From contig CM126204.1 of NCBI GenBank assembly GCA_052327205.1, forward strand, positions 155,310,001 to 155,374,000: 64,000 bases of DNA, in the 5' to 3' direction. This DNA comes from Somniosus microcephalus. Taxonomy: Eukaryota. Below, piece by piece: positions 1 through 31,811 of this stretch. The notes under the pieces are model-generated. The model worked only from the letters and a program-made list of their open reading frames with translations. It was not told the DNA's origin and made no database searches. Within the stretch, counting starts at the first letter, position 1. Every line of letters begins with the position of its first letter. The translations under genes were made by a program, and so were the position numbers.

Positions 1-682
1 GGGAACCATATTTTTGTGCAACTAGTACAAAGCACTAAATGTAAAGGGTTGCATTTCACTGCACTACCCAATCGGTTTAACAAGTTATTCATTGGTGTGT
101 GGAGACTAACCAAGGAATAAATCTGTTGTATAAAATATTGAGTTCAGGTAAAATGCACAAGTCAATAAATTAGTATTTTCAAATGGATGTAGAAAGCCAC
201 ATTTGGGTAATTTTGACTTTTGACTTCAATGGAAATAAAAATCAGGAGAGATATACACAACGGGCTTCCAATTCGCTATCAGTCAAAATTACCCCAGTAT
301 CTGTAAACAGGCAGTGTTGATATCTACCTAAAGACTACACCTAAAAAGAAGCCATTTACCCATGTTTACCAAAAATCCAATTAAAACAACATTTGTGCAA
401 GTGACAATTGGCTTAAATAACAGATATTTCCCCTCCCTCACTAGTCCCACACCCTACACCAGAGAGAGCTGGACAAGATGGCCTGCTCCCACCCAGCTAC
501 TAGAAAGTACAAACTGCCTGGTGAAAACTTCTTATTTTTGAGGGAAGGCACCTGACTTCCACTAGGCACTGCCTATGCAGGAATTCATTCCATCGGCCCT
601 AATGCTGGTGCCCTCATGTTATTCCACCTCCCATACTGGCAATGTTCCTGAAAGCTAAGATCAGCACACTAATAGGAAAAAG

Positions 683-688
683 TTTATT
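683..688 (-). promoter_or_regulatory. Possible XRN2 polyadenylation signal (AATAAA)
   Basis: tttatt on + strand about 1.15 kb downstream of the stop codon; usage not verifiable from sequence. Confidence 0.25.
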
Positions 689-846
689 CCTCATCAAAAT
701 AATGAAACATGGTCAAATATTTTTCAACTCAACAAATTGTTGTTGTCTGTATGTAGCGATCTGCTCATTCATGTTTTCAGTTAAGTATCTGGATACTGAT
801 CAAACTAACTTGAGTCTGATGACTTGATAGGATGTTAGAAAATATA

Positions 847-1004
847 TGGGTAGATTTTAACTTTTGCCGCCGGCGGTGGTTGTGGATCACCCACCCGTTA
901 TACACCCAGACAGGTTTTCCTTTCCATTGACTTCATGTATAAAGGACTGCCGATCCACTAGTGGCAGTTTTTCCACTGGTGATGAAACTTAAAATCTACT
1001 CCAT
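847..1004. mobile_element. Short TIR element (related shorter copy at about 204-296)
   Basis: atgggtagattttaa...ttaaaatctactccat; shares ccattgacttca with the reverse complement of 204-296. Confidence 0.5.
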
Positions 1005-1827
1005 CATCTCAAAATTTCTTCAAGCCAAGGCACATTATTCAATGCTTATTTATCTACTTAAACCCACCAGAGGAAGTGCAGTTGTACTCAAAAGCAGAAG
1101 AAAAATAAATAAATCGCACAACTACAGTAACTGAACAAAAAGAATTTGATGGTATTTCTGCACTAAAAACGGACGTAGTGTATCAACAGCTTCCCAATGT
1201 TGCCAGTAATCAAATATTTATAAAAATATGAAGGTCATGAAATATGTTCCTAGAAGTATACAGCTTTCAAGAAATCGATACTAACAACCAAAGTAGGTTT
1301 CAAAAATGGAAAAATCCCCACATTTGAAACATACTATTTAAAAAGCTTTTCTTTTAAGACATGTACAAATGCGATTACATTTGTATCGCAGATGAATTAG
1401 CTTCAAGAAAATTATAGAAAGAAAAACATGAAACAGAGAGGAATAGTAAACCAAAAATGGTAAAGCATTTACTAAAGATCACTTCTGATGTACAGTGTAC
1501 AGGAATAAAAACTCAATTGGTTTACCAATTTTACGAGGCGTACTAATCCATTATGATGTTAACAATTAAACTTGGCTGTATAGATTCTGCAATATATTTA
1601 CCACGCCCCGTCTTGACAGTTTAAAAAAAATGGAAACTGCAGAATCCATTTTACAGCAAGTGAAACATGAAGCACAAAAATACATAAACAAGTATTATAG
1701 TTTCACATTAAAAACTAGGTCAAGCACTCTTTACAGGTATTATGGTTAAAATTCAGCTTGGATGTATGCTGATCAATTAACTGGACCCTGTAAGGCACAG
1801 CTTGTGTTGCAGAGCCAAGTAGCGCTT

Positions 1828-1887
1828 TTAATTCCAGCTGTATCTTCCAGAATCTGGTGGCAATGGGTACTGTCTCCCAGAATACCC
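1828..1887 (-). CDS. XRN2: XRN2 last coding exon (GYSGRQYPLPPDSGRYSWN*)
   Basis: tttttcag acceptor, TAA at 1828-1830; resembles the human C-terminus YPLPPPSGRYNWN. Confidence 0.95.
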   Translation of the reverse strand, partial: GYSGRQYPLPPDSGRYSWN

Positions 1888-2210
1888 CTGAAAAATAAAA
1901 TGTTGCCAGACATTTTAAACCACTGTATAACCAAAGACAACAATTAGAATAAGTACATAAAAGCACAATTATGTCATTGATATTGATAGATGCAAGTCTA
2001 AGCGTGTAAGATTGTACACTGCAGTCATGTTTTGGGATTTTTTGACCATTTTTGAACAAGAAACGATTTGGAAACAAATTACATTTAAGTGGTGTGTTTT
2101 AAATTAAAGTGGGTTCATCGTTCTCCTTAAAGATGTATGCTGCAGCGCTGCAATAAAGAAGGAAATGGTGTGTCAATGAGTCAGTTATCCAAAATGGCTG
2201 GACACAAGTA

Positions 2211-2538
2211 CAGGAAACTTTGGTTTATCCGGAGGTTAACTGTCCGGAATGCTCGAGCCACCGGCAAAATTCAGGAGTCGGTTCAGTAAGTTTTTTTTCT
2301 TTTCGTTGCTTTTTTTCCCCACCAGTCAGGCTCTGCAAGGTCTAGCTAAAGCTGTTGCTTAGCTACAGAGAGGCTTGCAAGCTACAGCCAACTGTTTAGA
2401 AGCTAAGCAACAGGGTTTGTTGCCAGATACGGAGCTCAAAAGCTTCCGTATGTTTTAACATTAGCGCTGGTTTGTCCGGCAGTTTTGATGGGACGGCAAC
2501 AGCTCGGTCCCGTCGGTGCCGGATATCAAAGTTTCCTG
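2211..2538 (+). mobile_element. MITE family A, copy 1 (Tc1/mariner-pogo type)
   Basis: TA-caggaaactttg...caaagtttcctg-TA; internal sequence shared with 4 other copies. Confidence 0.88.
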
Positions 2539-5305
2539 TAATTTGTTATCTTGATTTAGAATACCAGTAGACCAACCAATCAAGATGGTATTCTTAGGTA
2601 CCCAGTATGCTGAGAATAAGCGCTTTGGAAGGAGGTAGTCAGTTTGGTTGACAGGTTTACTGGCGAATCCCTGAATAGTGAAGAATCATGGGGAGGGGAG
2701 AGAAGACAGCCTCCCCACTTCCTATGAACAGAGAAAAAGGGCTGAGGGGGTCCAGCAGTCTAATTAGGTCTGGGCCAATGAGAGAAAACCCTCTCATCTT
2801 AAGCCCAGGGCCAGTCAGAACCAAAAGGTGGCTCAGGAAAAGTTCAGTTAGCCCAAGAACGTGTGGAAGTGTGGCGCGGTTTAAAAAAAAATTACAGGGA
2901 GGCATTTGAAGTTAAGTGAAGTCAGTTTTGATTGTAACGGTCATGCTGTAAATTCACATGCAGCCTGGAAAATAATGCAGCTTAACGATTCATGTCTGGT
3001 CTCATCTCACCACCTTGTTTCAGTTCACCTACTGAAAAATTAGAGAAGTGCATGTGTGAAATACATGATATCCAGTTCAAATTGCATGGGGGCACTAGTG
3101 TTATAATTCCCTCATCCTGATTTCACTATCTAATGATTAGATATTGGGTAGAACCGGTAGATAAGGCGTGTGGTCTGCATACAGGAGTAACCAGCACCAT
3201 TGAACCTTAGGGAATATCTAAGGCACACCCAAAATTTTAACAACCGCAGGTATTACAATAAATCCTCATCTCCAATTTGCTGAGTCAGAAGCCTTAAAAT
3301 AAAAGTCAATCTGCACACTTGGCATTCCAACACCATGACAGAAGTGCAGGACATGTGGATATTCTGAACACGGGGACCTTATATGCCTAGCTGTGTTATC
3401 ACGGAGGAAATAGGCGGCGCGGAGAGGAGCAAAGTGAGCAAAAACAAGTCAAACGAACCAACCCATTCTTGTACACTTCCCAGCAGCCAGATTAAGAGTT
3501 GCAAAGGCCCAACAGCAAATAAACAGTTTGCACATCAGCCAGGAACTACAACAAAAAGCAAACACTGCAGATGCTGGAAATCTGAAATAAAAGCAGAAAA
3601 TGCTGGTGACACGCAGGTCAGGAAGCATCTGTGAAGAGAGAAACAGAGTTAACGTTTCAGGTCGATGACCTTTTGTCAGAACTGGAAAAAAGCAGGAAAT
3701 GGAACAAATTTTTAAGCAAGGGTAGGGGCTGGGAAATGGGGGAAGAGGATGAAAGAACAAAAAGGAAGGTCTGTGATAGGATAGAAGGCAGGTTAAGAGA
3801 CATTAAGAGATATTCAAGGCGAAAGATGTCACTGACCTCATCTCCTCTGGAGATCTCTCTCTCTCTCTTCTCCTCCTCCTCTCCCCCCCCACCCCCCCCC
3901 ACAGCCACCAACCTCATAGTTCCCCACCCCGCACAGCCCGTTTCTACCTCCTTCCCAAGATCCATACAGGACTGCCCCGGTAGACCCATCGTTTCAGCCT
4001 GTTCTTGCCCCACGGAACTTCTCTTCCTATCGCGCCTCTATTTTTTCTCCTTGTCCAGTCTCTTCCCACCTACATCCGCAACTCTTCCGACGCCCTCCGC
4101 CACTAGCAGTTTCCAGGCCCCAACTGCCTCCTCTTCACTATAGACGTACAATCCCTCGACACCTCCATCCCCCACCAGGATGGCCTGAGGGCGCTCCACT
4201 TCTTCCTTGAACAGAGGCCCAACCAGTCCCCATTCACCACCACCCGCCTCCGCCTGGCTGAACTCACATTTACTCCTTTGACTCCACTCACTTCCTCCAA
4301 ATCAAAGGTGTTGCTATGGGAACCTGCATGGGTCCGAGCTATGCCTGCCTTTTCATGGGATATGTGGAACACTCTTTGTTCCAGTCCTACTCGGGTCCCC
4401 TCCCTCACCTCTTGCCGGTACATTGATGACTGTTTCAGTGCTGTTTCCTGCTCTCGCCCTGAACTAGATAATTTCATTCACTTTGCTTCCCATTTCCACC
4501 CTTCCCTCGCCTTCACATGGTCCATCTCCGACTCTTCCCTTCCCTTCCTCGACTTCTCCGTCGTCATCTCTGGGGATAGGTTATTGACCAACATTCACTA
4601 CAAGCCCACTGACTCCCACAGGTATCTGGACTACACTTCCTCCCACCCCGCCTCCTGTAAGAACTCTATTCCATTCTCCCAGTTTCTCCGTCTCCACCGC
4701 ATCTGCTCCAACGATGCCACCTTCCATACCAGTGCTTCCGACATATCTTCCTTTTTCCTTAACCGAGGATTCCCCTCTTCAGTGGTTGACACAGCCCTTG
4801 ACCGTGTCAGTTCTATCTCCTGCACTTCTGCCCTCACCCCTGCCCCTCCCTCCCAGAACCACAATAGAGTTCCCCTTGTCCTCACCTTTCACCCCACCAG
4901 CCTCCACATTCAACGCATCATCCTCCTCCATTTCTGCCACCTCCAGCGTGATCCCACCACCAAACGCATCTTCCCCTCCCCTTTCAGCAATCCGTAGGGA
5001 CCGCTCCCTCCGCGACACCCGAGTCCACTCCTCTATCGCCCCCAACACCCCTTCCCCTGGCACCTTCCCGTGCAAGCGCAGGAGATGTAATACATGCCCT
5101 TATACCTCTCCACTGTCCAGGGCCCCAAACACCCCTTCCAGGTGAAACAGTGATTTACTTGTACTTCTTGCAATTTAGTATACTATATTCACTGCTCACG
5201 ATGTGGTCTCCTCTACATTGTGTGGAGATGCCGGAGTTGGACTGGGGTGGACAAATGTAAGAAGTCACACAACACCAGGTTATAGTCCAACAGCTTTATT
5301 TGAAA

Positions 5306-5342
5306 TCACAAGCTTTCGGAGCGCTGCTCCTTCTTCAGGTGA
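5306..5342 (-). ncRNA. Minimal hammerhead ribozyme motif (mirror copy, sense to XRN2 pre-mRNA)
   Basis: Exact reverse complement of 5771-5807. Confidence 0.75.
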
Positions 5343-5770
5343 AGTGGAGAAATGCATAAAGACACAGCTTATATAGTCAGAGAATCATGTCAGATGTTTA
5401 CAGGTAACCTTTCCAACTGCCATTTATCACATCTCGGCAGAGAGATAATCACAGCAGTCAAAGGTGTGAATGGTGTCCAAACAGGTCAGTCAGGGAAACA
5501 TTACATCAAAGAACAATGAGGTGGGGTCACAAGGGGTCAAATATTGCAGATGCTGGGTCTGCATCTGCAATATTTGACCCCTTGTGACCCACCTCATTGT
5601 TCTTTGATGTAATGTTTCCCTGACTGACCTGTTTGGACACCATTCACACCTTTGACTGCTGTGATTATCTCTCTGCCGAGATGTGATAAATGGCAGTTGG
5701 AAAGGTTACCTGTAAACATCTGACATGATTCTCTGACTATATAAGCTGTGTCTTTATGCATTTCTCCACT

Positions 5771-5807
5771 TCACCTGAAGAAGGAGCAGCGCTCCGAAAG
5801 CTTGTGA
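5771..5807 (+). ncRNA. Minimal hammerhead ribozyme motif
   Basis: tcac-CTGAAGA-a-ggagc(agc)gctcc-GAAA-gc-TT-gtga: intact core, stems I and II, palindromic AAGCTT stem III. Confidence 0.75.
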
Positions 5808-7895
5808 TTTCAAATAAAGCTGTTGGACTATAACCTGGTGTTGTGTGACTTCTTACATTCCTCTACATTGGGGAGACCAAATGCAGATTGGGTGACCGCT
5901 TTGCGGAACACCTCCGTTCAGTCCGCAAGGGGGACCCCAAGCTTCCGGTCGCTCGTCACTTTAATTCACCGCTCCACTCCCACTCAGACCTCACTGTCCT
6001 CGGCCTCTTGCATTGTTCCATGGAAGCTCAGCGTAAGCTCGAGGAACAGCACCTCATCTTTCAATTAGGCACTTTACAGCCTTCTGGACTCAACATAGAG
6101 TTCAACAATTTCAGATCATAACCTGGCCCCAATCATGTATATATTTTTTTATCCACACACTTTGTTTGTGCCTCCTGTTCTTCTCTCCCACATGGCAGCT
6201 GTCTTTCATTCTGCCAGTGCAATTTACACTTCATCTAGAGCCATCCTTTGTTTCTTAACCTGTCCCATTACCATCTCCTTTCGCCTTGAATATCTTAATG
6301 TCTCTTAACCTCTCCTGCCTTCTATCCTATCACAGACCTTCCCTCTTGCTCTTTCATCCTCTCCCCCATTTCCCAGCCCCTACCCTTGCTTAAAAATCTG
6401 TTCCATTTCCTGCTTTTTTCCAGTTCTGAAAGGTCATTGACCTGAAACGTTAACTCTGTTCCTATCTTCACAGATGCTGCCTGACCTGCTACGTGTCTCC
6501 AGCATTTTCTGTTTTTATTAGCCAGGAACTACAGGTGTATGGAGAAAGAAGAGTTATCTCCTGTATAAAAAGTTTGCATGGACCTAATTGTTTAAAAGTT
6601 GTTTGCATTTAAGTGCGCTTAAATCTTTCCTTTTAACTGTTTAAACGCAACACTATTTAAACTTGTAATATGGAAGCATTTTACAATTATGGCAATTCCT
6701 AGTTCTAGTTACAATAATTGTGAACATGTGAAATAAAAGTAGTATTAAATGTATTTTTAAACATGGATAAATGGTGTGGGATCTACTAAACAATGCAACT
6801 TCACCGTTTTCCCATTTCTTCCTCTCACCTCCACTTCCAAAAAACACAAGAATACAGCTAGTTACTTTTCTTAAGTTAAATCCTAAAAGGCTATTAACAC
6901 CATCTGATGGGCAAACTACAGAATTTATATAGCATTCCACTGCTTAACTGTAGAGTGATGCAAACTAGTATTTAAAAAAAAAAAAAAATCACCTTCCAAG
7001 GTGCATTTCCTGGTAGAAATGGGAGGAATTGCATTGTAAACCTATTGATAATCAAGCCAGACTCTCTTCTAGCATAATCTATTTTGCTGGCAATCAAAAG
7101 ACATAACTATCCACACTATTTGCACAAGTATGCATGCTAACCAGAAGCATTGCTTCAATGGGTTTTCTACGGTGCTATCCGTAGATTAAGGCAAATGTTG
7201 TCGTTGTTCATCCTGTCGTCCAGGTAGCATGCTGTACACAGGAGACTGCCTCGTTAGATTTGTCACTGTAGTGGGCAGAGGAGGTCAGCTGAGTTGAGAA
7301 AGCACTTCCCTAACTTGTGAAAACCGATTTAAAAATTGCCTGGAAGGATGAGGGCCATTTAGAACATTGATCAAGGTCCTTCAGATCAGCTACGGTATAG
7401 ATCAGATTTAATGCGAAGTTTAATTACTCTGTCAATTGCAACATTTCTAGAGATGGGCTGCACAAGGTGTTGCAGTTCAGCTGCACAAGGTGTTGCAGTT
7501 CAGCATATAGCACTAAGTCTTATAGTGATGAGGAGTACAAATGCATTAAGCTTTCAAGTTCCTACACTGCTTTTTTCCTGAACAAACTAGTGCCAAAATT
7601 TAGGGCAGTTTTCTTCTTGCAACTTGTGCCCAAAATTGGATTTTGGAGGAGGGAAATAAAATAAATTGGAGAACTTGTGGGCTGTAAATCGTACACAGAA
7701 GAGAAGGGAGGCATCCATTTTTTTTTAGTATGCAAGATTTAGAAGCTGGATCTTGGACAACTTTGAATCCAGGTACTTTGTTATTTAGTTATCCAAAAGG
7801 ATCAAACATTCTTTTGAAATATTAATACAGCTTCAATTAAACACCGTAGTTAATTAAAAGAAAGCAATTATTTTAACATTGTTGTCGACTGTCAC

Positions 7896-8037
7896 CTGTC
7901 GCCCTCTACGATCATCTTGTCTCTGTTGGTACTGGCTTGGCATTCCTGATCCAAGCCTCTGTTGATTCTGCTGGAACATACCACTCTGAGACTGCATGAT
8001 ACGATTCCATGCTAACTGCTGCTCAATCCCCTGGTTT
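7896..8037 (-). CDS. XRN2: XRN2 penultimate coding exon (NQGIEQQLAWNRIMQSQSGMFQQNQQRLGSGMPSQYQQRQDDRRGRQ)
   Basis: 142 nt; WNR..Q and DDR.GRQ conserved. Confidence 0.93.
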
Positions 8038-11000
8038 CTATGAAGTAAAAAAGTTAGTTTGTTGTTACTACTTCCTTTACAATGGACTACATTCAATTGT
8101 CAAGTTCCAAACTTTATGTCCCTCCAAAGAAAAGGGGGCAGGGGAAATACAACACAACACATTTTGTGGATAACATGGGGTCCAATTGAAAAATTAGAAT
8201 TGCGTTACAGACAATCCCTGGCATCTTCTAGCAGTTAGCTACAAGTGCACTGATAGCAGACTAGTAACAAACTATGAATCTGCCTCCAATTTTATTTTGG
8301 GGGGGGGGGGGGGGGGAAGAGAATAAAGGAGGAGAAACAGCCAAATATCCCTATTAAAAAGTAGACAAAAAAAATAGCCCATTACCCCAACCCACTGGAG
8401 GGGCCTGTTCCCGGACCTCTGCCAATACCTTTCTAGCTAGCTGTTTGAAAATTTACAAGCAGTCGAGGGACATTTGCCAAACTTACGCTCCCTCCCTTCA
8501 AGGAAGGATCAGGACTCTGTTGAGTGGCTCTGCAATGGTGCAGCAGACATCAATAACTTAACACAGGGAAAAAATAAATTATACAATTAAGTCTGAACCC
8601 AGCTCCTCCCACAAGTCATATTCTTGTGCCACCTGCTAAAACTTTTCCAAGTCTATAACACTAGCATGCAATACAGAGAAATGTATACATTAACCTCTCA
8701 CATTCTAACTTGTTGGAATGATTTAAATATACTTTGTGCAATACCATGCAGCAAAACTCTTCAGTACCAATTTAGTAGAATTCAAGTAGTTGCTACAATA
8801 TATTTCAGATTTTATGTTTTCCCAAATCTTCAGTTCTCCATTTACCGATCTGGAGCATCCTAGTTAAACCATGCTTTTGAAGTTCATCTTAAACAGCTAT
8901 GTTTTCTGACACCCAAGATCAATGATGATTCATTTATACATCAACTGTGATTCATGAATATTCATATGCTGGTTTTCCAAATGTGCATATACTAAGTTTG
9001 AATGCTTTCAAGCCCACAAAATATTTTAAAGTCTAACCACACAATTAGTCCAAACCATTACATTCATTTAAATCTAAATCGATGGGCTAAAATTCATGTT
9101 TTGAGATTTAGCCTTCATAATAGTCTGATGAGAGTAGTGATTTATTCTTAAGAAGCTTTGCTCATGGTAAAACTTTATATTGTCCAGCAATTTTGCATAA
9201 AAACCCTTGGATCAACATGCCAACAACATGCATTATTTATAACTAATGAACTCGAGCCCTTTTCTGATGGCTCCAAGAAGGGAAAAACCTGTTCTGACTG
9301 AATCCAAAAAAGACGACAATTCACACAAGTAGTAAACAAATCCACCCGTAGAAGGGGGCTTTATTTTCTAAATAGCCAGACACTTTCATGAAGCCTATTC
9401 TTTCCAGTTAATTGCAGGTTGTAAATGAATTCTTGCTGCTGAGTATTTAGAATCTAGGGTAGGGCTGTGGCTGTATTTTCCCATCCATTATGCTACTCAA
9501 TATGTCAGAAGGTCTGATCGGGAAGAAACCTTTTCAAGTCCTATTGATGCAGTTTCAATTGACCGTGGTGACCTAGCAACACAAGCACTAATTGGCACAG
9601 ACTGACTGACATTTGGTGTACAGTTTATATGGGAACAAGAATCCACATCAATTATAACCCAGTGTGTCAGCCTAGATTCCCAACAGGAAGAAATATTTAA
9701 TTGTCACCATCACCCTTAAGATGGATATGAATGAACAGGTATGAAAGCACTGGAAAAGTACCAAGTCCTAAATAACTAAATTGCACCAATCTACAGTATT
9801 AAATCAGCACTCAATTTTGTCTGCAAAAATTGTACCAAAATTTCAAGACCCTTAAACCTATAGTTTTTAAATATAAGCAATTGGTTAAAACAGAGTATTT
9901 ATATCCTAGTATTTTCAGGTTATTTCAGCTTCCTCTGCTTAGTTATGAATATATAAATACACAAGCATGATCACCATTTATAAGTTTAACGTTTCTTAAG
10001 GGGTCAGAGTTGCACCCTCCTTGATAAAGATTCCCTCGTTCAGAATAAACAGCTTCCCAGATTTCAAAAAGGTGGTGCATGTAGTCGACCCTCCCCCTCC
10101 ACTTTATGGAGTTCATGCCAAGGAACCTCCCTTGTTCTCACTTCACGTACAATGATTAATAGACAAGTACTTCCTTTGAGAGAACTTAAAAGCATGGATA
10201 AAAACTACTTTTGATCAGCAAATATCAAAAGATTTTTGGAAAAACTACAATTCGCCCCACTATATTGTATTGCAACAGTAAAACTGTTCACTTTGAAAGG
10301 TAGGATACAAAAAGGTACAGCATTCATCTTGGTTCAGTAAATTCAAATTGGGCGTGTACAAAATGTTTAAACTTGTCAGTTATTGTTGTAGCTGCCACTT
10401 AAGTAGCTCCACAGAGCATTACAAGATGCAGCCAATACTTGCACGTGGTTTGTGCATTACTCAAAAAAAAGTGTACACAATACACGTGCAACACTAATAG
10501 CCTTGGATTAGTAGAGCTGGAGTTAGAGATATATATTCTAATCACTTTTCTTGACTTCAGACAGGCAGTCTCTATGTTGCAGAAACAAATTAGCTAGACA
10601 ACACCATAGAAGAATGAACAGAGCACAAGTTGGTCTTATTTTTCAAATTACGACAAGAGGAAGAAATGCATGCAACCTTCAACTGAAGATGGCTATTCTG
10701 TGTGGAAATAGAATACTGCAGAACTGTCTTGCAACCAATAACCTTCGATTTATTTATATGGGTCCTTCAAAGTAGAAATATTAACATTCAGAAACTGAAG
10801 CCACTCAAGGTGCATCAACACCCTGGAAATATTTTCAGTTAAACTTACAAAGTTAAAACAATTTCTTGTACAAAAATTTCACATCCAGGCAACATCCCTT
10901 ACAAAATCCCTTATTACAAAACCATGTCACATTCATTCTACTGCACAGTACTATTGAACTTTACAAATTCAGTAATCCTCCTCCAGGTTTCTTCTGTATT

Positions 11001-14000
11001 TAATTCAGTTCAATCTTAAGTAGTTAAAGAAACTGTTTTCGGTTGCCACTAATAACTACTGACCTACAGTGACACTGCTCCACAATAGGCTTGTCAGGCC
11101 TGTAAAGTTGTACCAAAGAAGCTGATTAGTACTTGAAGAGGTTTGTAGCAAGAATCAATGGTTCGTCTGTACTAATACTGTGGTTCCAGCACAAAATGAT
11201 AATAGTGGAACACATTAGTTATGCCTCATTAAGCTCCACGATCCTCAAAAGAAATTTGTTTAGCCTACCCAAAAATCTAATGCAGATTTAAGCTTCCAAT
11301 GCTGAATTTTATAATTACACACACAACATACAATAAAGTCATAGCCAACAGACCTTAAAGGGAATAGCTTCCAAAGTAAGAGAAGTGATTTTTGCCAAGT
11401 TCCAGAAATGTATAAATTTTATATCATAATTGATGCATTGCCCAGGTATTTAACAAAATAAACTAAAAGGCAATATTTTTCTAGTCAAGGCACTGAGAAT
11501 AAGGGAAGGTCAAAGCAAATTAAATTTTAAAAATGGAGTAGGAATTGGTCAAAAACAAAAAAAAGACACTATTCTGAATATGAAGATTAGATACAGGTTA
11601 GTTGTTAAGAACTCCTAAATAAAACTACATAATCAGAGTTATCAGAAAACAAAAACAAAAGTCTAAAAGGCACTTAGAAAGATAACCAGCACTTTAAAAG
11701 TGTTTTTCTTATTTTAGCAGATGGTCTCAACTTTGTGTACTTTTTACATTTAAACTCATTTATTCAATGACTGCTTTGTATTAATATCTCCACTACAGTC
11801 AAGTTCATTAAACCAAAACTAAATGGAATGCAATAAAGTGAAAATGTTCAAGCAAAGTAGAGGGTATTTTGTTGATCACATTTTTCACCAATCTATATGT
11901 AGTTTGCAAAATGCTGAACAAAATGATCACGGTTAAAGAGAGAAGTCTGCTAACCGGAGGGTCATATCAAAATGTTAACTGATTACCTAATGTAGATCTG
12001 ATCCATCTTACTCCTTAAACCACAGCCTTAATTATATGAACAGAATAAAGATCCAAGGCAAAACAAGAAAAATTAAGTTCTCTGGAGCAAATTACTTTCC
12101 ATTAAAAGAGAAGCCCAAAATAGTCTAAGTATTAGAAGTAGAACAGGAGATTTCCTAATTGGGAGAAGAATTATTTTCCATATAGCTAATGCCAAAAGTC
12201 AGTTTGCATGAGCATCGACTGAATCTTACGGAGTTCCTGAGGAATGAAAGGGAATAGCCTCCTTGATCCAGCCATCTGATACATAACCACTCACCTGCTA
12301 TCCAGGGAAAGCAGTCATGGGAACTCACTGTTAGAGCATAGAGGCAGCAGCACCATCACATGCTGCTTTCTTTCTGGGCTCTTATCTGTCCTCTGGCAGG
12401 ATCTCAAAATCTGGACATGAAGTCTACTCTGGCACAAAAGCAGTATGTCCAGCTGCATGTAAAGCTCAGATATATTTGGGGTTTGTTGGGTTTACAGCAA
12501 TGTTTAATTGGTCACTAAAGAGAAGGTTTCCTTTCAGCTCAGTGGGGAACTAGATATCCTGAGTAAGGTATGTCTACTGGGCAGTATATCTCGAGTCACA
12601 GATCTAAACCCTATAATCAAAGGAGTCAAATGTAGACTGCTGCTAGAGATTAGCAATCTGATTACCCATTATTAGCTTGGAGAGCATCTTTGAGAGGCAG
12701 AAGCTTGACTTACAGTAATACGGTCCCCGATTGGGAACCCAATGGACCGAAAACGATGCCAACCTCATTTGGAGGTTGCCTTGAGCAAATAACATTTTGA
12801 TCTAGTCTTAGTTTCTTTCTCTTGTTTACAGGGACTCAAAAGTACTGTGCTTCAGCAGCTGTGATTTTGTTAATCCCACCACATACAAAGCAAGGCATCC
12901 AAGGAGTTGAGTTGTGAATCAAAGCTTTTTAAAAATCTATGGAGAGCTGCAGATTATCCCTATGTGAATGCTGATCCCAGCTACAGCAAACTATTCAGTT
13001 CAGGCCTCCACCTAAAAAGTCTTTAGGAATATGGGGGAGACGAAAGTCAATGTAGTTCACCAAGAGTTGTTGTGGAATAAGTCAGTCCTCGCAGTTAGGA
13101 ATTTGGAGGAGAAAGAACTAATTCAAATAATGGACCAGCATGCTACCTCCCATCCACTATCAACATCATTTAAAAAGAACCTTACAGTATAATTCACAAC
13201 TGTAAAAAAAAAATTACAAACCACAGTGGGAATGTAGAAACTAAAATCGGAAATTAACAATGAGGTCTTGCTGCCTTAGTTTGACTGGCAAAGCTAATTA
13301 AGTTCAGTTCAAATTTATGGTTACTTTTATTGGCTTGTGTAACAAGAGCACAATGCGGAGAAGATTAATATTCATGTATATTTTTTTCAATGTACAGGAT
13401 CTTTTATAGCATGCTTTCAGAAGCAAAAGCCCAATTCTTGTTAACAGGATTAAAGACAGCCTCCGAATGGATAGTTACCCTGTTAACAGGAATATTTTAA
13501 ATCAAGCAACAAGTTATAGAAGGGGGATAAAAGGACAATTTTCCTAACCTTGGGTTTGCATTAATTAGCGGGCTTCTACTGTTTGTACATAAACATCTAT
13601 GCTTTATAGCTGTGAAATCTGAAGAATGGGGCTATTTTTGTGTTATATTAAGAGATCTCTGAAGGAGTATTCCCATGTATAAAAGATCACTTTTGTTCTG
13701 CTCGGTGGACAGTTTGCTCAGGTTATTTTGGATCCAGTTAAACATCTACCCAAAGATCTTTCCCTGACCATGTACTTACCTGGCAGGTGAACCAAGGTTG
13801 TACACATCACTAGAAATTTTCAATAAACAACTTCAAGTGATGCTGTAGTTGAAAACTCTCTCAAACAAATTGTTTTGGGATTTAACTGGCTGATAGCAAG
13901 TCATGCCCCGTGTCATAATTTGACATGCATGCAAGCATTTCCAAGCTAAGTACCTCATCTTTTCTTCACCAATTTTTATTCCCTCCTTACCAGGTACAGT

Positions 14001-15140
14001 AGTGCAGGTACCCACTGCCCTCCAGCACCTCAGCCAAGTGGTCATTATTCATGCACGGGCCTCAAAAGGATATCTGGTCATAGGGGGCATCATAGCTGAC
14101 ATCCACACAATCATTTGTGATTGGGGATCACAGAATAGCTCTCAAAAACAGGAGCCCTGAGTCTTTTTCTCATTCCCTAAACAGATATGCTGAGGCCAAC
14201 AGTAGTACTCCTACAGCTGAGATCAACTAACTCAACATGCTGATCCATCAGGTGTGCATAAATGTCCCACTTTAAAGTAGAGGATTTGGCAAGAACAAAA
14301 AGGAAGTAGAGAGTCAGACCACAGTTGTTATAATTCATAACAGCAAGCTATATATCAGAGCTCTTCTAGCTGTATTGCAGTTTGGGAACCAAAGAACTCA
14401 GGATACCCTTAATGGGATCTGACTTTTCAGACAAGGGTCTGACAAACTCACCTGCTAAATGCATCAAGAAAAAAATATATATATGCATTTTCTCTTTTCA
14501 TGTATGCTCCTATAAACAAGACAGCACTTTAAAGACATTAAGCATGGTACAATTTACATACCCCGAGAGTTGATAGCAAAAATCCTTTTCCATAAAAGCA
14601 CAAGCTTTTCCACTAAATAATTACTTTTCTAGACAAGGCTGAACAGAACCATTTCAATTGTGGCAGGTAACACAAGAACTATTCTTACAAACTAGAAATC
14701 AACTACCCTAATGTGCTAATCACAGATCTCCATATGCCCCATCTAGATACAAGATCAATATTAAATAAAGGCAATATTAGAATATTGTAAAATATTAGAA
14801 AAAACAAACTGACAGAAGGAAGATAACAAAGGAAGGAAAGGAAGAAAGAAAGCAAAAACATGAATTTATATAATGCCCTTCACATCTTCAGCACTTTACA
14901 GCTGAAGTATTTTTGAAGTGGTGTAATGTAGGCAAACACAATCACCAATTGTGGACAGCAAGGTCCCATAAACAATCATGAGATAAATGTCTAGTTAATC
15001 TGTTTTTGCTTTGTTGGTTGAGGGATGTAGGCCAGGACAATAAAGTAAATAAGTGAAATCTCATTATACTGCATTCATTCTATTTGTTTTCTAGATAGGT
15101 TAAGTAAAACACAGCCTTAAAATTACATTATTAATCTTAC

Positions 15141-15204
15141 CTCTGAGGTATAAGCTGCTGAAAAAGCGGTTGTGGACCTCGCCATGAATCTTGGGGTCTC
15201 AAAC
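15141..15204 (-). CDS. XRN2: XRN2 exon (LRPQDSWRGPQPLFQQLIPQ-R)
   Basis: 64 nt; RPQDSWRGP.PLFQQ conserved. Confidence 0.95.
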
Positions 15205-18200
15205 CTGTAGATTATAATTATAATATAATTACAACACAATTCTAGAAATTCTTCCACATTTTGCACACTAGAAAACTGCAATATTGGGACTTTTAAACCC
15301 CCCCCCCACCATAAATCTGTTCAGTCTTTATATAGAACATTACAACCAAGCTTCACTTTTGTTTTACAAAAGTTCAGCTATCCAACAGTCAATTAAATTT
15401 CCATGAAATCCCACATACTAAATGGCAAATCCATGCATGTTTACTACCTGCAATTACCTTTTCGGTTGACAGCAAAACACCTGTTTAAAGTGGTGTTGTT
15501 TTAATAATGCTTTAAAAATATTTTTAAAGCTGTAAATTATCACACTAGATGTGCAATGAGATCAGACACTGGCATTTCACCTCTGATGCCAATGTTCAAA
15601 TTGAGCTCAAACTTAGCTAAGTAAGGGTCCTACATAATCTGTGTTAGGCTGGTCTCAGTCGACTTCCCAGTGCCTAATTCAGCACCAGCTGACAGAGTGA
15701 GACTGCTAGTTATTAGCTATGTTACTCCAAAGCCATTAGGTATCAGGTGTGAGAGATGAAAACATGTTACACTGATACATGAGTGGATGCTCTTGAGGTT
15801 GGGGCTGAATTACATTGTTGAAGCGCTCTCTGTTCTGCACCTAGCTATGCTAACTGGGAAATGCTTTATGCTGGCACTAGGTCTCCAAAATGGCAAATGT
15901 TGTACTTCCACATCAATCATCCCTTACCTTGAGCACAAAATTCAGACAAAAAATTTGAATTTGCTTTGGATTAGTTTATTGTGCTACCCCTGCGGTTAAG
16001 ACATATTCAGCACATCGTTCCATTTTGTTTGACCTTGCTCAGAGAAAAGCAGCGAACAGGTTTAACTGAATGGGCATAACATTCAGTGCTAATTTGTCTG
16101 CAGTTTGCTCAGTGGGTAAGGGTGAAGCAGTCTTGGCATTTACAAAATGCATTTACATGACATTAGGATACAGAGCATACCTGTATATATTCATATACAA
16201 GAAAAGATTGCAGATCATAAATATAAATAGTTTGAAGATCCAAGTCATTAATCAGATTCTGGTCTATTCCTAGCAACATTGGAGATGCAGCACTCAGGTG
16301 TACTCTTGGATACATGTATGCTGTAATGCTTTCTTTTCCTACACCCATTTCTCTCCTGTTATGTGCTCTGACATCTAACCTGGGGTTCATATTAGCCATG
16401 AGGAGGGATACCATGGTGCCTACTAACTCTTCCTACCACAGAGAGATACGTGACTTCCACTTAGCATTTCCTCACAGCAATATTGCAGAAAGAACTCAGC
16501 AAAAAGGGTGTAGGGAGTGCCCACTATCCACACTGTCACTGCAGATTGGTACTCCAATGTATCACCTCATAACAAGGCTTCCTTTATGTAAAAGAAAATT
16601 AATGCAATTAGAGGCACTTTCTCGATTAGAAATATTAATGCTGTCAGCCCAGGGAAGTATAGAGCAAGTCATCTTCAATGACAGTAACTGGACTGCTCAG
16701 AGGAAACAAATTTGAACATCTGTGTTACTAAAAGTACAACTGTGCCAATGATATCACTTTCTGTTTCCAGTATACTCTGGGGAAATTATGCAAAGTTCAT
16801 AGAATAAAATTGACAAGTAATAATTTTTCAAGAGAGCGAGCCTTTGTCTTAGTGGCAGCATTCCTGCCTCAGAATCAGAAGTTGCATGGTTCAAACCCTG
16901 CTCCAGACAGTCCCAGCAAGCTCTGGCTCTGAATCCTAAGGTGACATGCAGAGGGCTACTCTTGTCCGGGTGGCCCCTTTCATCGTATGGGTTGTGTGAG
17001 CCCATAAAATCCTCCCGCCGTACAGGGCTAACCACCCTATCAGCTAAGATGGTTATGGTCATGGACTGCTAATCAACCTTGGAAAGTATGAAAACAGCAT
17101 AATTTTTCAAGAAACAAAAGTGAAATCTTCCATCTCTCTTCCTTCCTAATGAAATTCCTCAGGATTCTTTTAACTTTAGTTGAATCTCTCCCAAAAATAG
17201 CAGCAGGGTATTAAATGGGAAAAGGATGCAGTTACCCTAATTCCTTTTACCCCAAACTCTGGTGCAAATGTCTTAGCAAGCACAGTATGTCACAAGCAAA
17301 GCATAATCTGAAGCTCAAGTATTCTAAATCAATTGAACAAACACTGAAAAAGGTCTCTAACCAATAGCTCTCTGGTCATTTTACAATATGGAGCAAATTG
17401 CAAATCAATCAAAACCCTTTGACAATTCTTATTTTCTTTAATGAACTCATGATTATCAGAAGTAAAACCAGCAACACTTGCTGGCTAATGAGGCAGAATG
17501 AAAGAAAACATTGGCCGGATTTTTTTTTTTTTTAAACCTGGGAACCCGCTGGGGGCAGGGTAGAGCGCGAGAAACCCGGCTGTGCAGTTTTAATTCCACA
17601 GCGGCGCGTGACGTCACAGGCAGGTTCCTCGCCTGACTGACAGGCTGGCTTCCAGTTGGGCGGGGAAAGCTAGACAAGAGGGCGCAACCCCGGGTAGGTG
17701 CAAGCCCCAACCTTGGGGTGGGGGTCCCGATCCCTGACCGGGGAGGGGGCGGGGGGAAAGAGAACTTGGGGTCCAAAAGGAAGCACTCCCACTTCTCCCA
17801 GCCCACAAGGAGTGCTCCGTGAGGCCATCCTCGCCTCGATGCAGCTGCTGGGATTCCAGAGGCCTAGGGTCCCTGGCCTGCCACAGTTAAAATTGCAAAG
17901 CAGGTTAACTCAAAGGCTTCCAGTTTTATCATAATGTTTAAAGTGCCAACCCACCTCCTGGGAGCGGGTTGGCTGCCCGCCCCCAGCCCCGCCTCGTTTT
18001 AAACCGGAAGTGGGTGGGTTGGAGTCGGGATTATGATTTTTAACAAGTTAACCTCCCACCCAACCCACCCGTTTGTTTGGTGTTAAAATTCCCCACATTG
18101 ACATTTTCCCTCTGGGTGGTTGCATCTCTATAAAAGCAAAATTTAACACTGGGCATCAAATACTATCCACTAAAAGTGCTATAATTTGAAGGTACAAGTT

Positions 18201-18368
18201 CATCCTCATGTAATTACTAGAGCTGCAACCAATGATGCCCCAAGTTTTAAATTTGGGTGCGCGCTCCCCTTAATGGGCTGCGTGGACCCAAGTTTTGCGC
18301 ATGCTCAAAACTTCACATCGGAAAAGCCGGTCACGCGGGACTGGCAGACAGCTGCGCAACTTGAGGGG

Positions 18369-19503
18369 ACATAAAAACTCTTCTACCCATATTCATGGTC
18401 ACCCCCTTGACCTCAGCAGCCTCTCTACTCCCACAGTCTTCATCTTTAACAAGGCCATCTCCAACCAATTCCTTGTAGCCCTCACCACCCTCCCAACTTC
18501 ATTTACCCCTGTCCCACCTCTGGAAAAATTTACTAATGTAAATTTAAGCCCATTACTACTATTTCCCCGTTAGGTCCTTCTCGCTTCCCTTTTAATTCCC
18601 CCAACCACACCACCTTTCATTACACACTCACTGGGGACTAAACCTCACCAACCTCCTTCTGGTCCTGCTCACCCCACCTACCAATGCCCCCTTGTACTCT
18701 GCCAGCAGAAAAACAGACCACCCCTCTCTGAATTTCTCTCCAGAAGGTCTGTTCACTAGCGAAAAAGGTTCTTCAAATCCACAACTTATTGTAGATGAAC
18801 GTATGGACCTCCTGGCTTTGACTGAAACTTGGCTAACAGGTGGAGACACCCTCTCTTTTACGGAAGCTTCCCCGCCTGGCTATACTTTCCACCAACTGCC
18901 CTGCCTGAACTGCCATAGTGGCAGTGTCACCCTTAGCACCAAGTCACACTTTGGCCTCTCCCCGCCATCTTCTCATTCAAGCATCTCACCTCGTTACAAA
19001 CCTCTCGCCTATGCTTTAAAATCCTCATGGTCTACAAGCCTCCCAAGCTCCACCCAGAGATATCTTCCCTCTTCCAGCCTCTACATTGAATGCCACTTCA
19101 TCTTCAATTTCTGCTCTCCTTAACGTTACTCCAATGAGCTCACTGCCTTCCAGTCATCCCTAAACCTCTCCCTCCATAAAAACTCTTCCAACCATATTCA
19201 TGGTCATCCCCTTGACCTCAGCATCACCTGCAGCCTCTCTACTCCCACGGTCTTCTTCATTGACGAGGCCATCTCCAACCAATTCCTTGTAACGCTCACC
19301 ACCCTTCCAACTTCATTTACTCCTGTCCCACCTCTGGAAAAATTCTTTCCCAAGTTACTTACAACCACACTTTCAAAGTCCCACTATCTCCCATCCTAGT
19401 GATTCACTCTGGCATGGCCCCTATCTTCAATCCATAAAGTTAAAGGATGCAGATTCGAGCATATTTTGGTTTAGCCATCCATCACCAGATCAGGCTGGAC
19501 CAC
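18369..19503 (+). mobile_element. L2-type LINE fragment (AP-endonuclease region) with internal duplication
   Basis: DLLALTETWL and THIHGHPLDL motifs; 18370-18530 repeated at about 19175-19345. Confidence 0.7.
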
Positions 19504-19551
19504 AAAAAAAGTAAAAAAATGTTTTTATTACAAAAATGAGATTAAACTCAC

Positions 19552-19647
19552 CTATGTTAGAAATGCCTGGAACAATGTTTTTCGTGGCAAGCCTGTAAGA
19601 TGCCGGAACCTTGGGTTCATACAAGTTCGCAGAGCCATCACTGTTAG
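19552..19647 (-). CDS. Candidate extra/alternative XRN2 cassette exon (T-NSDGSANLYEPKVPASYRLATKNIVPGISNI-G)
   Basis: 96 nt, stop-free, phase 1-1 matching the host intron, strong AG/gtgagt donor, modest tctcttcag acceptor; no homology recognised. Confidence 0.35.
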   Translation of the reverse strand, partial: LTVMALRTCMNPRFRHLTGLPRKTLFQAFLT

Positions 19648-20524
19648 CTGAAGAGACTAACCATGACAGCAGCCTACAGCATCGGTTACAACTTTTAGAA
19701 TTTTTTGATTGACAAGAATGGGCATCCACGAAGCATATTAGATATTTCTGTTTCTAAACCCGACTCATCCAATGGAAAATTGAAACTCTCAGAAATAACT
19801 GACAATGAAAGTAACTGGAATCTGTCTTTTCTTTTGCATAAAGGCAATATGAACACCAACTTCTTTTCCTGAGGCATTATATTTGAGAACAATTTACATT
19901 ACTATATTCAAAGGGTTATTTCCAGCATGTTTATGTCTGAGAAATGAAACTTTAAACGATGTCAAATTTCAAAGTGGAATCTTAACCTTTAAAAAAAAGT
20001 CCCAACCGCATATAGCGGGTGTGTTCATGCCAACTCAATTTGCCCGCTATACACGGTGGAATGTAAAACCACCTGAATGAAGCTGCCAAAAGACTCCACT
20101 TTCTGACCGCCTCCCATAGTTGTTAAAAAAGTAACAACCACGGTGTCTGAAGTCTCCATCAGCTGCTGGCACTGTTAACAGTTAACAACTATGAGAGCCA
20201 GTTGTTTACAGTGCAAACAGCTGATTGAAGCTGCTTGAAGACCTGACTTTCTTGAATTCAGCACAGCTTTGAAATCGTTAAGTACTGAAGCTGCCCAAAA
20301 TAGCCTGCGCACTTGATACATTTTAAGCAGCTTCGTTGTAATTGACACCTATGGTGATGACAAACGGTTAGCGCCATTTGCCCGATATCGGCGACTGTCT
20401 GTGATAAACACAGATGGTGTAAGTGGTGGGGACTGTATTCTAAACTGTTACAGTAGCTGCCTTTTATTTGTACTGAGAATTTGAAAACTATGGTGTACAT
20501 ATAAATGGATAGTATCACCCGACT

Positions 20525-25015: not shown

Positions 25016-25151
25016 AGTTCTGAAGAAGGGTTTCGACCCAAAACGTTGACTCGGTTTCTCTCCATGGATGTTGCCTGGCCTGCTGAGTTTTTCCAGCGTT
25101 TTCTGTTGTTATTTCGGATTTCCAGCATCCGCAGTATTTTGCTATTGTATT
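25016..25151 (+). mobile_element. Short Penelope pLTR cassette with degenerate hammerhead
   Basis: agtt-CTGAAGA-a-gggt(ttcg)accc-AAAA-cgttgact plus tail ...ttccagcatccgcagtattttgc. Confidence 0.7.
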
Positions 25152-25369: not shown

Positions 25370-26560
25370 TTCCCAAGGGTTAACTGGAGTTAATTGCAGC
25401 TCATCCAAGATTGGAAGTTGGACAAGCAATCTGACAACACTGTGGCAATGGAATGGCAGGGAGGTAGTGGAGAAGTAGAGCTGGCTGTCATAAGCATACA
25501 AGTGGAAGCTGATCTCTGTCTTCAGATGATGCTGCCAAGGGATAGCATGTAGATGAGGAATAGGAGGCAGCCAAGGAGAGAACCTCGGGGGACTGCAGAG
25601 GTCATGTAGATGAGGAATAGGAGGCAGCCAAGGAGAGAACCTCGGGGGGCTGCAGAGGTCATGTAGATGAGGAATAGGAGGCAGCCAAGGATAGAACCTC
25701 GGGGGACTGCAGAGGTCATGTAGATGAGGAATCGGAGGCAGCCAAGGAGAGAACCTCGGGGGACTGCAGAGGTCATGTAGATGAGGAATAGGAGGCAGCC
25801 AAGGATAGAACCTCGGGGGACTGCAGAGGTCATGTAGATGAGGAATAGGAGGCAGCCAAGGATAGAACCTCGGGGGACTGCAGAGGTCATGTAGATGAGG
25901 AATCGGAGGCAGCCAAGGAGAGAACCTCGGGGGACTGCAGAGGTCATGTAGATGAGGAATCGGAGGCAGCCAAGGAGAGAACCTCGGGGGACTGCAGAGG
26001 TCATGTAGATGAGGAATCGGAGGCAGCCAAGGAGAGAACCTCGGGGGACTGCAGAGGTCATGTAGATGAGGAATCGGAGGCAGCCAAGGAGAACCTCGGG
26101 GGACTGCAGAGGTCATGTAGATGAGGAATCGGAGGCAGCCAAGGAGAGAACCTCGGGGGACTGCAGAGGTCATGTGTCGAGATGGGAAGAGAAACCATTG
26201 CTCGGATGCTCTGGCTACGGTTTGATAGGCAAGAGTGGAACAAAGCAAGATTAGTCCCACTGAGCTGGCTAAAGGAGGAGATATGTTAGAAGATGTTGTT
26301 TGTGGTTGACCCTGTCAAAGGCTGCAGAGGTTGAAAAGAACGAGGAGGAATAGTGCACCACGGTCAGTCGCAGAGGATATAGTTTGTGTCCTTGGTTAGG
26401 ACTATTAGTGCTGTCGTAGAGACCGAAACCTAATTGGAGATTCAAACATCGAGTTGCGAGAAAAACGGGCATGTATTTGGGAACTTTGAAAGGGAAGGGA
26501 AATTGGGTGTTAATTTTCAAGGACAAAGGTATCAAGTGTGGGCTTGTTGAGTGGGAACCA
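25370..26560 (-). mobile_element. L2-type LINE RT fragment containing a minisatellite
   Basis: SAAFDRVNH, VPRGSILG.LLFLIY and FHLYAYDSQLY (decayed YADDTQLY). Confidence 0.8.
25546..26175. repeat. Minisatellite, 11 units of 57 bp (one 55-bp unit) plus 5 bp
   Basis: Unit catgtagatgaggaat(a/c)ggaggcagccaagga(g/t)agaacctcgggggactgcagaggt. Confidence 0.97.
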
Positions 26561-28750: not shown

Positions 28751-28858
28751 CTGAAAGAGAAAGGTGAAAACAAACAATTTAATGATCATTTCATAGAATT
28801 TTACAGCACAGAAGGAGGCCATTCCGCTTGTTATGCCTATGCCGGCTCTTTGAAAGAG

Positions 28859-28991
28859 TTCTGACGAAGGGTCATTGACCAGAAACATTGACTCTGTTTC
28901 TCTCTCCACAGATGCTGCCTGACTTGTTGAGTATTTCCAGCATTTTGTTTTTATTTCAGATTTTCAGCTTCCGTAGTATTTTGCTTTTGTA
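28859..28991 (+). mobile_element. Short Penelope pLTR cassette with hammerhead motif, inserted in a CR1 3' end
   Basis: CTGACGA-a-gggtc(att)gacca-GAAA-cattgactc followed by the tail shared with 6422-6519; TSD tctttgaaa(g/a)ag at 28847-28858 and 28992-29003. Confidence 0.75.
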
Positions 28992-29128
28992 TCTTTGAAA
29001 AAGCTGTCCAATTTAGTCCCACACTGCAGCTTCCTCCCCATAACCCTACAAATTAGTCCCCTTCAAGTTCATGTCCAATTTTCTTTAAAAAGTTCCTATG
29101 GAGTCTGATTCCACCACCCTTTCAGGTA

Positions 29129-29459
29129 CAGGAAACTTTGAGATATCCGGCACTGACGGGACCGGCGTGTTGCCAATCTATCAAAACTGCCGGACATACA
29201 AAGTTAATGTTGAAACAGAGGTTTTCATCTCCTTATCTGACAACAAACACTGTTGCTTAGCAACAGCTTCTAAAGAGTCAGCTGCAGCTGCAAGCATCTG
29301 TAGCTAAAGCTGCTGCTATAGCTACAGACCTTGCAGTGGCTGACTGGGGAAAAAAAAACGAACGAGATCTAAAAAAAACTTACAGAAAACGGCTCCTGAT
29401 TTTTGCCGTTAGATCGAGTATTCCGGACATACAACCTCCGGATAAACCAAAGTTTCCTG
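29129..29459 (-). mobile_element. MITE family A, copy 2 (inverted; interrupts a CR1)
   Basis: Same TIRs; TA duplication splits the CR1 sequence ctttcaggTA|gtacattccaga. Confidence 0.88.
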
Positions 29460-31206
29460 TAGTACATTCCAGATCTTAATACCTTCTGCGTGAAGAGATT
29501 TCTCCTCATTTCCCCTCTAGTACTTTTGCCAATTTTTTTAAATCTATGACCTCTGGTTATTAACCCACTTGCCAGAGGAAAGAGTTTCGGAAACAGTTTC
29601 CCCCTACTTACTATATCAAAACCCCATCATACTTTTGAATACCTCTATTTTGTCTCCCCTTAACCCTCTCTGCTCCCAAGGAGAACAATCCCAGCTTCTC
29701 CGATCTCTTCACATAACTGAAGTCCCTCATCCCTGGTATCATCTTGGTAAACCTCCTCTGTACCCTGTCCAGGGTCTTGACATCCTTTCTAAAGTGTGAT
29801 GTCCAGAATTGTACACAACACTCCACCTGAGGCCTAACAAGAGATCTGTAAAGGCTTAGCATGACTTCATTGTTTTTGTATTCAATGCCCCTATTTACAA
29901 AGCCAAGTATCCCACACGCTTTCTTAACTGCCCTTATCAACTTGCCCTGCCACCCTCAAAGATTTGTGAATATGCACCCCCAGGTCCCTCTGTTCTTGCA
30001 CCTCTCCGTCCCCACCTCAAAATAGTACCATTTAGATTATACTTCCTCTCCATGTTTCTCCCACAGTGCATCACTTCACACTTATCCGCATTAAATTGCA
30101 TCTGTCATGCGTCTGCCCATTTCACCAATCTGTATATGTCCTCCTGAAAGCCCATATATACATCATCTACTGCACTACCTTCATCAACCCACTCTGTTAC
30201 TTCAAAGAACTCAACAGGATAGTCAGACACGATTTGTCTTTAACAAATCCATGCTGGCTGTCACTTATTAACCCATGTTGCTCCAAGTGAGAATTAATTT
30301 GATCATTGACAATGGTCTCTAGTAGTTTTCCCACCACTGATGTCGGGCTGATTGGCCTGTAGTTACCAGGTTTATCCGTCTTCCCTTTTTTGAACGGGGG
30401 TGTAAAATTTGCAAACATCCAATTCTCTGACATCACTCCAAAATCCAAGGAGGATTGAAAGATTGTGGTCAGAGCTTCTGCGGTCTCCATCCTAGCTTTC
30501 CTCAGCAACCTAGGATACACCCCCATCTGTACCGGGTGGCTTGTTGACTGAGTGATGCCAACCTATTTAGCACCTCCTTTCTATCTATTTTTATCCTATC
30601 CAATATCTCTACTCCCCCCATCTCTACTGACATTAACTTCATCCTCTTCTTTTGCGAAGACTGATGCAAGTACTCATTCAGTACCTCATTTATATCCTCT
30701 GCCTCCACAAGAAGATTTTCTTTCTTGTCTCTAATTGGCCCCACTTTTCTTTTAACTATCCTTATACGTTTATAAAAGATTTTTGGGTTCCTTATGTCAC
30801 CTGCTAATCTTTTCTCATACTCTCTCTTTGCCCTTTTATTTCCCCCTGCCCTCTATATTCTGCCTGTTAATGTATCATTTACATCAACAAGGATGGTGAT
30901 TCTTAATAGAAGGATGTCAAATCTTAAGCAAGTACTGCCTGAACGTTATGTGATAGCGAGAACTAGGGCAATCACAGCGTCCCTCACTGAATTGATGTCA
31001 AGACAAGCATGTTTTCAGCAGGCATCAATGGACAATGATCAAAGAACCCTATTTTCTCCTCCCTAGCCAAGGCACCAAGTACTTCCACCCTAACTCAAAT
31101 CGGCTAACTTCATATAGACCCGAGAAAGAATCCTGCATCTTTGTGGTCTGAAATAACAGAAAATGCTGGAAACACTCAACAGGTCAGGCAGTATCCACGT
31201 TATTTT

Positions 31207-31570
31207 CGGTGGCATAGTGGTTAGCACGGTTGCCTCACAGCACCGGGGACCCGGGTTCAAATCTGGCCTCGGGTGACTGTCTGTGTGGAGTTTGCACATT
31301 CTACCCGTGTTTGCGTGGGTTTCCTCCGGGTGCTCCGGTTTCCTCCCACAGTCCAAAGATGTGCGGGTTAGGTTGATTGGCCATGATAAAAAAAAAAAAA
31401 AAATTGGCCCTTAGTGTTAGGGGGGATTAAATACGTGGGGTTACGGGGATAGGGCTTGGTGTAGGGACCGGGTGCTATGGGTTGGATGATCAGCCATGAT
31501 CTCGTTGAATGGCGGAGCAGGCTCGAAGGGCCGAATGGCCTACTCCTGCTCCTATCTTCTATGTTTCTAT
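31207..31570 (+). mobile_element. tRNA-derived V-SINE (HE1-like)
   Basis: A box tggcatagtgg, B box gggttcaaatc, V-domain gggtttcctccgggtgctccggtttcctcccaca, CR1-like 3' tail. Confidence 0.88.
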
Positions 31571-31811
31571 GTTATTTCAGATTTCCAGCATCCACAGTAT
31601 TTTGCTATTGTATCTTTGTTGTCCGAATGGTTTTGTGGTTTCTCACAAGCAAATGTGTGCTGACAACATGTTAACAGTTTCTCAACTAGAAAGAATCTTG
31701 CCACCAATGCTCATTCATTTTAATGATTCAAAGTTGCTACCTTGAATGTTAACTTTAAAAAAAAAAACCTCAAATCCCAGGAAAATTTTATTGTTTAGAA
31801 ATGCTACTTAC

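Follow-up and report, generated by a model that had tools for sequence, protein, structure and literature searches.

A window of 64,000 nucleotides from the genome of Somniosus microcephalus (contig CM126204.1, positions 155,310,001 to 155,374,000 of assembly GCA_052327205.1) contains an older Penelope-like element (PLE), hereafter the host, into which a hairpin insert of ~650 bases has landed. On the forward strand of this window, the insert is flanked on its left by a target-site duplication (TSD) covering the L-Y-I codons of the host (5209..5220, plus strand; located by global alignment and exact-duplicate search). It begins with a 33-nt tail (5221..5253, minus strand), which forms the 3' terminus of the unit of the inserted family. 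A tailed arm follows (5254..5553, minus strand), corresponding to the 3' untranslated region (UTR) and pseudo-long terminal repeat (pLTR) of an autonomous PLE family whose sense lies on the minus strand. A 7-nt loop, TGGGTCT, carrying the parental sequence of the tailed arm (5554..5560), separates it from an inverted tail-less arm equivalent to reference positions 34-333 (5561..5859, plus strand). The right TSD copy occupies 5859..5870 (plus strand), and its first T doubles as the final base of the right arm.

When 5254-5553 was globally aligned to the reverse complement of 5561-5859, 299 of 299 aligned columns were identical and the one difference was a G indel, confirming the palindrome, the 7-nt loop and the one-sided 33-nt extension of the original prediction. 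Its 12-bp TSD is likewise real: the longest exact duplication flanking the insert is TCCTCTACATTG (12 bp, at 5209-5220 and 5859-5870), and the flanks joined without the insert read CGLLYIGETKCRLGDRFAEH, which restores the LYIGETK frame of the host GIY-YIG endonuclease. The loop and the following G are parental, as two other loci (L002 and L016) carry on as GCTGGGTCTG-TATG; the tailed arm therefore spans 5221-5561 (341 nt) and the join involves 1 nt of microhomology. The whole insert folds into one hairpin (-598.7 kcal/mol, z=-64 versus shuffled sequences). The insert must be very young, in line with the recent origin first proposed, because no substitution separates its arms, a property found in only one other compared insertion (L004); over 335 nt it is also 100% identical to another copy. 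An Rfam match of the insert to mir-1265 was discarded, being below the gathering score and confined to the hairpin centre. The target flanks of family copies revealed no shared target site, although targeting of YIG codons was not formally tested, and landing in these codons is most likely a matter of chance in a repeat-rich genome.

Motif inspection identified a minimal hammerhead motif (CUGAAGA...GAAA) with a stem I of 4 bp and a stem II of 5 bp at 5306..5342 (minus strand) and a second copy at 5771..5807 (plus strand). Folded on its own, each motif forms both stems, with folding energies no better than those of shuffled sequences (z=-1.1 and -0.8). Rfam returned no hammerhead match in positions 1-20000 of the window, so that the call rests on the motif. 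Of the claim that each arm holds a minimal hammerhead, the core motif on each strand thus stands, while neither folding nor Rfam adds to it. A minimal hammerhead in the pLTR is a feature of PLEs, found here by motif and stems, and according to two studies such hammerheads act in vitro weakly or with the assistance of protein (PMC4209133, PMC11167929). The former attributes to truncated PLEs the dual hammerheads that lie 100-700 bp from each other on opposite strands. The present pair, ~430 bp apart on opposite strands, shares with them the minimal core, the short stem I and an extra unpaired base at stem II; those pairs were described in Schistosoma, whereas this one is tied to mapped inversion junctions. 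In a read-through transcript, both hammerheads would be locked inside the 300-bp duplex, and they are probably passengers of the insertion.

The 6.4-Gb genome was queried with the tail and arm, the best 40 of 244 candidates being scored. Among these 40, many copies match at 96-100% identity and run on beyond the loop into the 3' UTR and then an open reading frame (ORF). Other copies of the arm thus do adjoin a reverse transcriptase (RT)/GIY-YIG ORF, a possibility raised by the original prediction. In full-length copies, the 33-nt tail sits just upstream of the ORF ATG; one locus (L063) shows a 3147-bp tandem unit, and partial tandems forming pLTRs also occur in L062, L065, L221 and L222. Open frames of 891-893 amino acids, starting just after the tail and comprising RT, zinc-knuckle and GIY-YIG regions, were found in 3/3 fetched copies, which had been picked for long open frames. 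The parent ORF contains the motifs GTAMG, RYIDD, a CX4CxxC linker and WYIGET. It matches the Pfam model RVT_1 above cut-off and no Pfam GIY-YIG model, and its putative endonuclease is assigned from the WYIGET motif and from its resemblance to the C-terminus of the host (40% identity). A C-terminal protein query of the genome gave 46,818 first-look candidates, which is not a copy number. The arm thus constitutes the 3' end of a PLE family that is abundant, autonomous and endonuclease-positive (EN+). By its CX4CxxC linker, which Neptune and Nematis share, the parent is probably Neptune-type; a CX2-5CxxC linker between RT and endonuclease is given as a feature of the Neptune clade, common with Nematis (PMC8557442). 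The family may already have been named. The linker is present in parent and host alike, and identity between the two proteins is 28% in RT/thumb and 40% in the endonuclease, indicating, as originally claimed, that they belong to different families.

The insertion form of this family was examined in 220 loci, in which 140 head-to-head junction detections collapsed to 101 distinct junctions. The sampling favours top hits and short windows. Collapsing by junction position has probably fused two independent copies (L030 and L098), and one insertion (L007/L038) is counted as two junctions. The tail-less arm starts at positions 29-37 in 70/83 cases, its partner bearing the tail, and among 98 oriented junctions the longer arm is the tailed one in 48 and the tail-less one in 44. 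Joins overlap by 1-13 nt in 66/101, as judged by BLAST ends. With a scoring that accepts 10-18 nt and one mismatch, and a search that over-extends into microhomology, a TSD-like duplication was present in 60/68 copies having both ends in view. A tailed arm, an inverted tail-less arm and a TSD are the family's normal insertion form, and the host has the same layout of tail, short inverted arm and TSD. PMC8557442 presents inversion of a 5'-truncated copy, with a tail on one side, as typical of PLEs. As a single locus, the insert is thus one of many such copies, of a kind already known. The variable TSD lengths further indicate that it is not a DNA transposon with TSDs of fixed length, an outcome that the original prediction had envisaged as fatal to a Penelope origin.

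Both arms of an insertion derive from one source, as only 54/892 subfamily-diagnostic sites (6%) are discordant between the arms of 77 insertions, compared with 28,768/67,648 (43%) between insertions. Discordant arms were also considered as proof of two different RNAs, and no clear case emerged (L010, 4/18; others fewer). At reference position 212 (window 5432), a non-CpG C/T site, the arms are discordant in 17/63 pairs, more than at any CpG site. RNA editing or cDNA deamination was rejected as its cause, since the change favours neither the tailed nor the tail-less arm (9 vs 7); the position is best regarded as a hypermutable site.

The near-symmetry of the insert is a minority property of the family. 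Leaving the query out, 6/100 junctions lie within 10 nt of symmetric versus 1.49 expected from shuffled pairs (p=0.003). One independent insertion with its own 12-bp TSD (L228) has the same centre, exact but for one G, and another with its own flanks (L044) has it with one further change and the loop on the other arm. The three copies in this register differ in loop length, outer ends and loop-bearing arm. Three more insertions join at an adjacent CAGA/TCTG hairpin, and a control pattern near reference positions 290-315 gave 10 near-perfect palindrome centres, 7/10 with a shared 7-15-nt word at both outer ends. Near-perfect palindromes of 300 bp are thus a recurring minority product and not a unique event. 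One locus (L143, G000:C7:193.78 Mb) has an inversion with a zero-length loop and arms of 265/265, which simple snap-back does not give.

The original prediction had also suggested a non-autonomous ribozyme-bearing element. In this explanation, the insert would be a stand-alone palindromic unit, similar to a retrozyme or a miniature inverted-repeat transposable element (MITE), replicating as such. It is ORF-less, flanked by a TSD and endowed with two hammerhead motifs, and its centre is found in two other insertions. However, the exact centre occurs once in the assembly, the copies sharing its register are not alike in loop or ends, inversion points vary, and elsewhere the arms run into an ORF. 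The asymmetric ends and variable TSD also led us to reject a MITE. Animal non-LTR retrozymes resemble the insert in being short, non-coding and PLE-derived with a type I hammerhead, but they are tandem direct repeats, each with a hammerhead, that amplify as families, while the insert is a one-off inverted pair (bioRxiv 10.64898/2026.07.22.740005). A stand-alone element is thus highly improbable.

The hairpin is a real, very young and ordinary dead copy of an active PLE family. Collectively, the data support, with a probability of roughly 0.85, that it is a young dead-on-arrival insertion of an autonomous EN+ Penelope-like retrotransposon with a Neptune-type linker, in agreement with the proposed ORF-less product of Penelope retrotransposition. 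The endonuclease of the element would make a staggered cut, 12 bp apart, and each target 3' end would prime reverse transcription on element RNA, one cDNA starting at the tail end and the other 33 nt inside. Both cDNAs would halt early and be joined head-to-head with little or no microhomology. Their stops would usually differ and here nearly coincide (341 vs 333). Near-coincident stops are ~4x commoner than independent stops predict, suggesting some coupling between the two ends in a minority of insertions, through snap-back of one cDNA end or because both enzymes reach the end of the same RNA. The fold-back first proposed is therefore plausible for the centre of the hairpin; alone, it cannot explain the two outer ends. 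Two RT start sites and extension of both strands have been obtained in vitro with an anole element, for which hammerhead cleavage was dispensable for insertion, as reported in PMC11167929. In rotifer elements, self-priming has been put forward as the origin of palindromic junctions (PMC3846280).

Several points weigh against this explanation. Sequence alone cannot tell whether the tail-less end was primed on RNA or arose by a template jump, and concordant arms could come from a single RNA, from two transcripts of the same locus or from arm-to-arm conversion. The symmetry excess is weaker at 25 nt (8 vs 3.8 expected, p=0.03) and at 50 nt (13 vs 7.3 expected, p=0.02), and the top-hit, short-window sampling can inflate it. 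Asymmetry can also follow insertion, as the paralogs described below illustrate, so that present arm lengths need not equal the original stops. Finally, the insert rests on one assembly: neither a read nor a contig was found to cross the hairpin, and public contigs from 4 runs, all of other samples and dominated by paralogous repeats, provide no piece spanning the stretch, their joints near 5207-5883 deriving from other host-family copies. This lack of a spanning contig, together with the near-perfect hairpin, would suit a fold-back artefact of assembly or library construction. However, read fold-back would mirror the flank, whereas distinct host sequence borders the insert on either side; the insert also has a TSD and a tail at one end only, and its tail-less arm ends where those of other copies end. 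We consider an artefact highly improbable.

The paralogs in question are L007 (arms of 824/831) and L038, L039 and L041 (G000:C42), segmental duplicates with both flanks in common. Over 1 kb, pairwise identity is 98.9-99.2% among the latter three and 97.5-97.8% between them and L007. They are missing 408 bp that begin at the centre of the palindrome and extend into one of its arms, whereas L007 retains a palindrome with 770-bp arms; the deletion was aligned for L038, and L039 and L041 have the same junction. L007 must be the ancestral form, as it retains parental bases past the end of the other arm. This single 408-bp central deletion raises the alternative that most inverted insertions of the family are born near-perfect, by snap-back or by one RNA being copied twice to the same end, and are later trimmed at their centre, the insert being an untrimmed example. 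The identity of the element would be unchanged, and only the weight given to each step would differ from the preferred explanation. Such an order of events also fits the symmetry excess, the single-source arms, the microhomology joins and the 48:44 split of the longer arm, and a revision of palindromes by centre breaks is named in PMC3300023. Conversely, among the 77 insertions, strong asymmetry prevails in copies whose arms diverge by <1%, near-symmetric insertions are no younger than the others (1.1-4.1% divergence, L001 aside), and one trimming event alone was seen. Moreover, the tail-less arm is longer in 4/7 near-symmetric copies, unlike the outcome of simple snap-back of a tailed cDNA. 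This alternative is therefore unlikely, if far less so than a stand-alone element or an artefact.

The 3' end of the inserted family is chimeric. The end (tail) of a decayed host-type pLTR is embedded in its 3' UTR (5538..5561, minus strand) and holds the inversion point: positions 5538-5556 match the host element tail at 17/19, and the palindrome centre of the window falls within this remnant. The claim that the arm is unrelated to the host pLTR is thus partly wrong, failing for the central 25 nt. About 146 nt right after the family's stop codon align with the host pLTR and tail, including a broken hammerhead core; the alignment score is 73 versus a shuffled maximum of 43, and that of a second copy 64 versus 51. 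The host-type tail word is exact in 27/30 ORF-selected copies. In L191-L220, the first 160 nt past the ORF stop contain a decayed host-type pLTR with dead hammerhead and tail in the same orientation. A truncation hotspot at the embedded tail was considered and is not supported, the enrichment being too weak to be claimed: 14 ends fall at 330-354, a bin for which the first query had itself selected, and 11/45 remain without those loci (p=0.049). The nearby control window, with its 10 palindrome centres, compares with 5 exact-pattern hits at the hotspot, the patterns not being equivalent.

A broader account would combine these elements: inverted PLE arms would arise in one coupled single-RNA reaction with two starts 33 nt apart, be born palindromic and be trimmed later at the centre (the insert untrimmed, L007/L038 catching the trimming), in a family that had captured another's pLTR with its dead hammerhead. 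We hold this combination to be rather doubtful.

Compared with the complex insertions of EN+ PLEs, as described in PMC8557442 and PMC3846280, the insert shows the same head-to-head arms, a one-sided tail (30-40 bp there, 33 nt here), a TSD of variable length, a parent with RT and C-terminal GIY-YIG, and partial tandems. It differs in having arms too short for any ORF and ends within 8 nt. In the Poseidon element of Anolis carolinensis (PMC11167929), element ends ~33 nt apart likewise bracket the tail and both target strands prime. However, that element is Penelope/Poseidon, whereas the inserted family has the Neptune/Nematis CX4CxxC linker, and its hammerhead overlaps the ATG, while here it lies upstream. 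A literature search covering few subscription papers found no junction statistics, twin-priming or trimming account of PLE inversions. The junction population constrains how PLEs make an inverted arm and tail, through the single source of both arms, either arm being the longer, the fourfold near-symmetric excess, the recurrent joins at short hairpins and the post-insertion central deletion. The mechanistic value of the insert itself is modest. If palindromes do come first, an active family would keep generating fragile sites prone to cruciform formation. An in vitro test is feasible, as the genome holds intact young copies of the family.

The host is a 5'-truncated and frameshifted element (3551..6519, plus strand), with a 35-nt tail (3551-3585), an inverted arm (3586-3825) matching 6278-6519 at 224/234 columns with 5 gaps, and a 14-bp TSD (3537-3550 / 6520-6533). 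Further host-type Penelope pLTR/tail fragments lie at 25083-25150, 28856-28992, 31570-31613 and 48867-49015.

Among other copies of the inserted family, secondary insertions of about 280 bp interrupt L014 and L065 near reference position 338. A family segment recurs each 55-125 kb in L084-L092 (G000:C35, 56.5 and 61.06-61.70 Mb), which suggests a large tandem segmental array, and at L037/L067 (G000:C43:8.06-8.08 Mb) a 1.2-kb truncated copy is present three times inside a minisatellite-rich tandem duplication. Elsewhere in the window, a 57-bp tandem array occupies 25432-26204, its inner copies being 97-98% identical, and another dispersed repeat family is found in both orientations at 2208-2542, 29126-29472, 41298-41454, 48342-48686 and 56999-57343.

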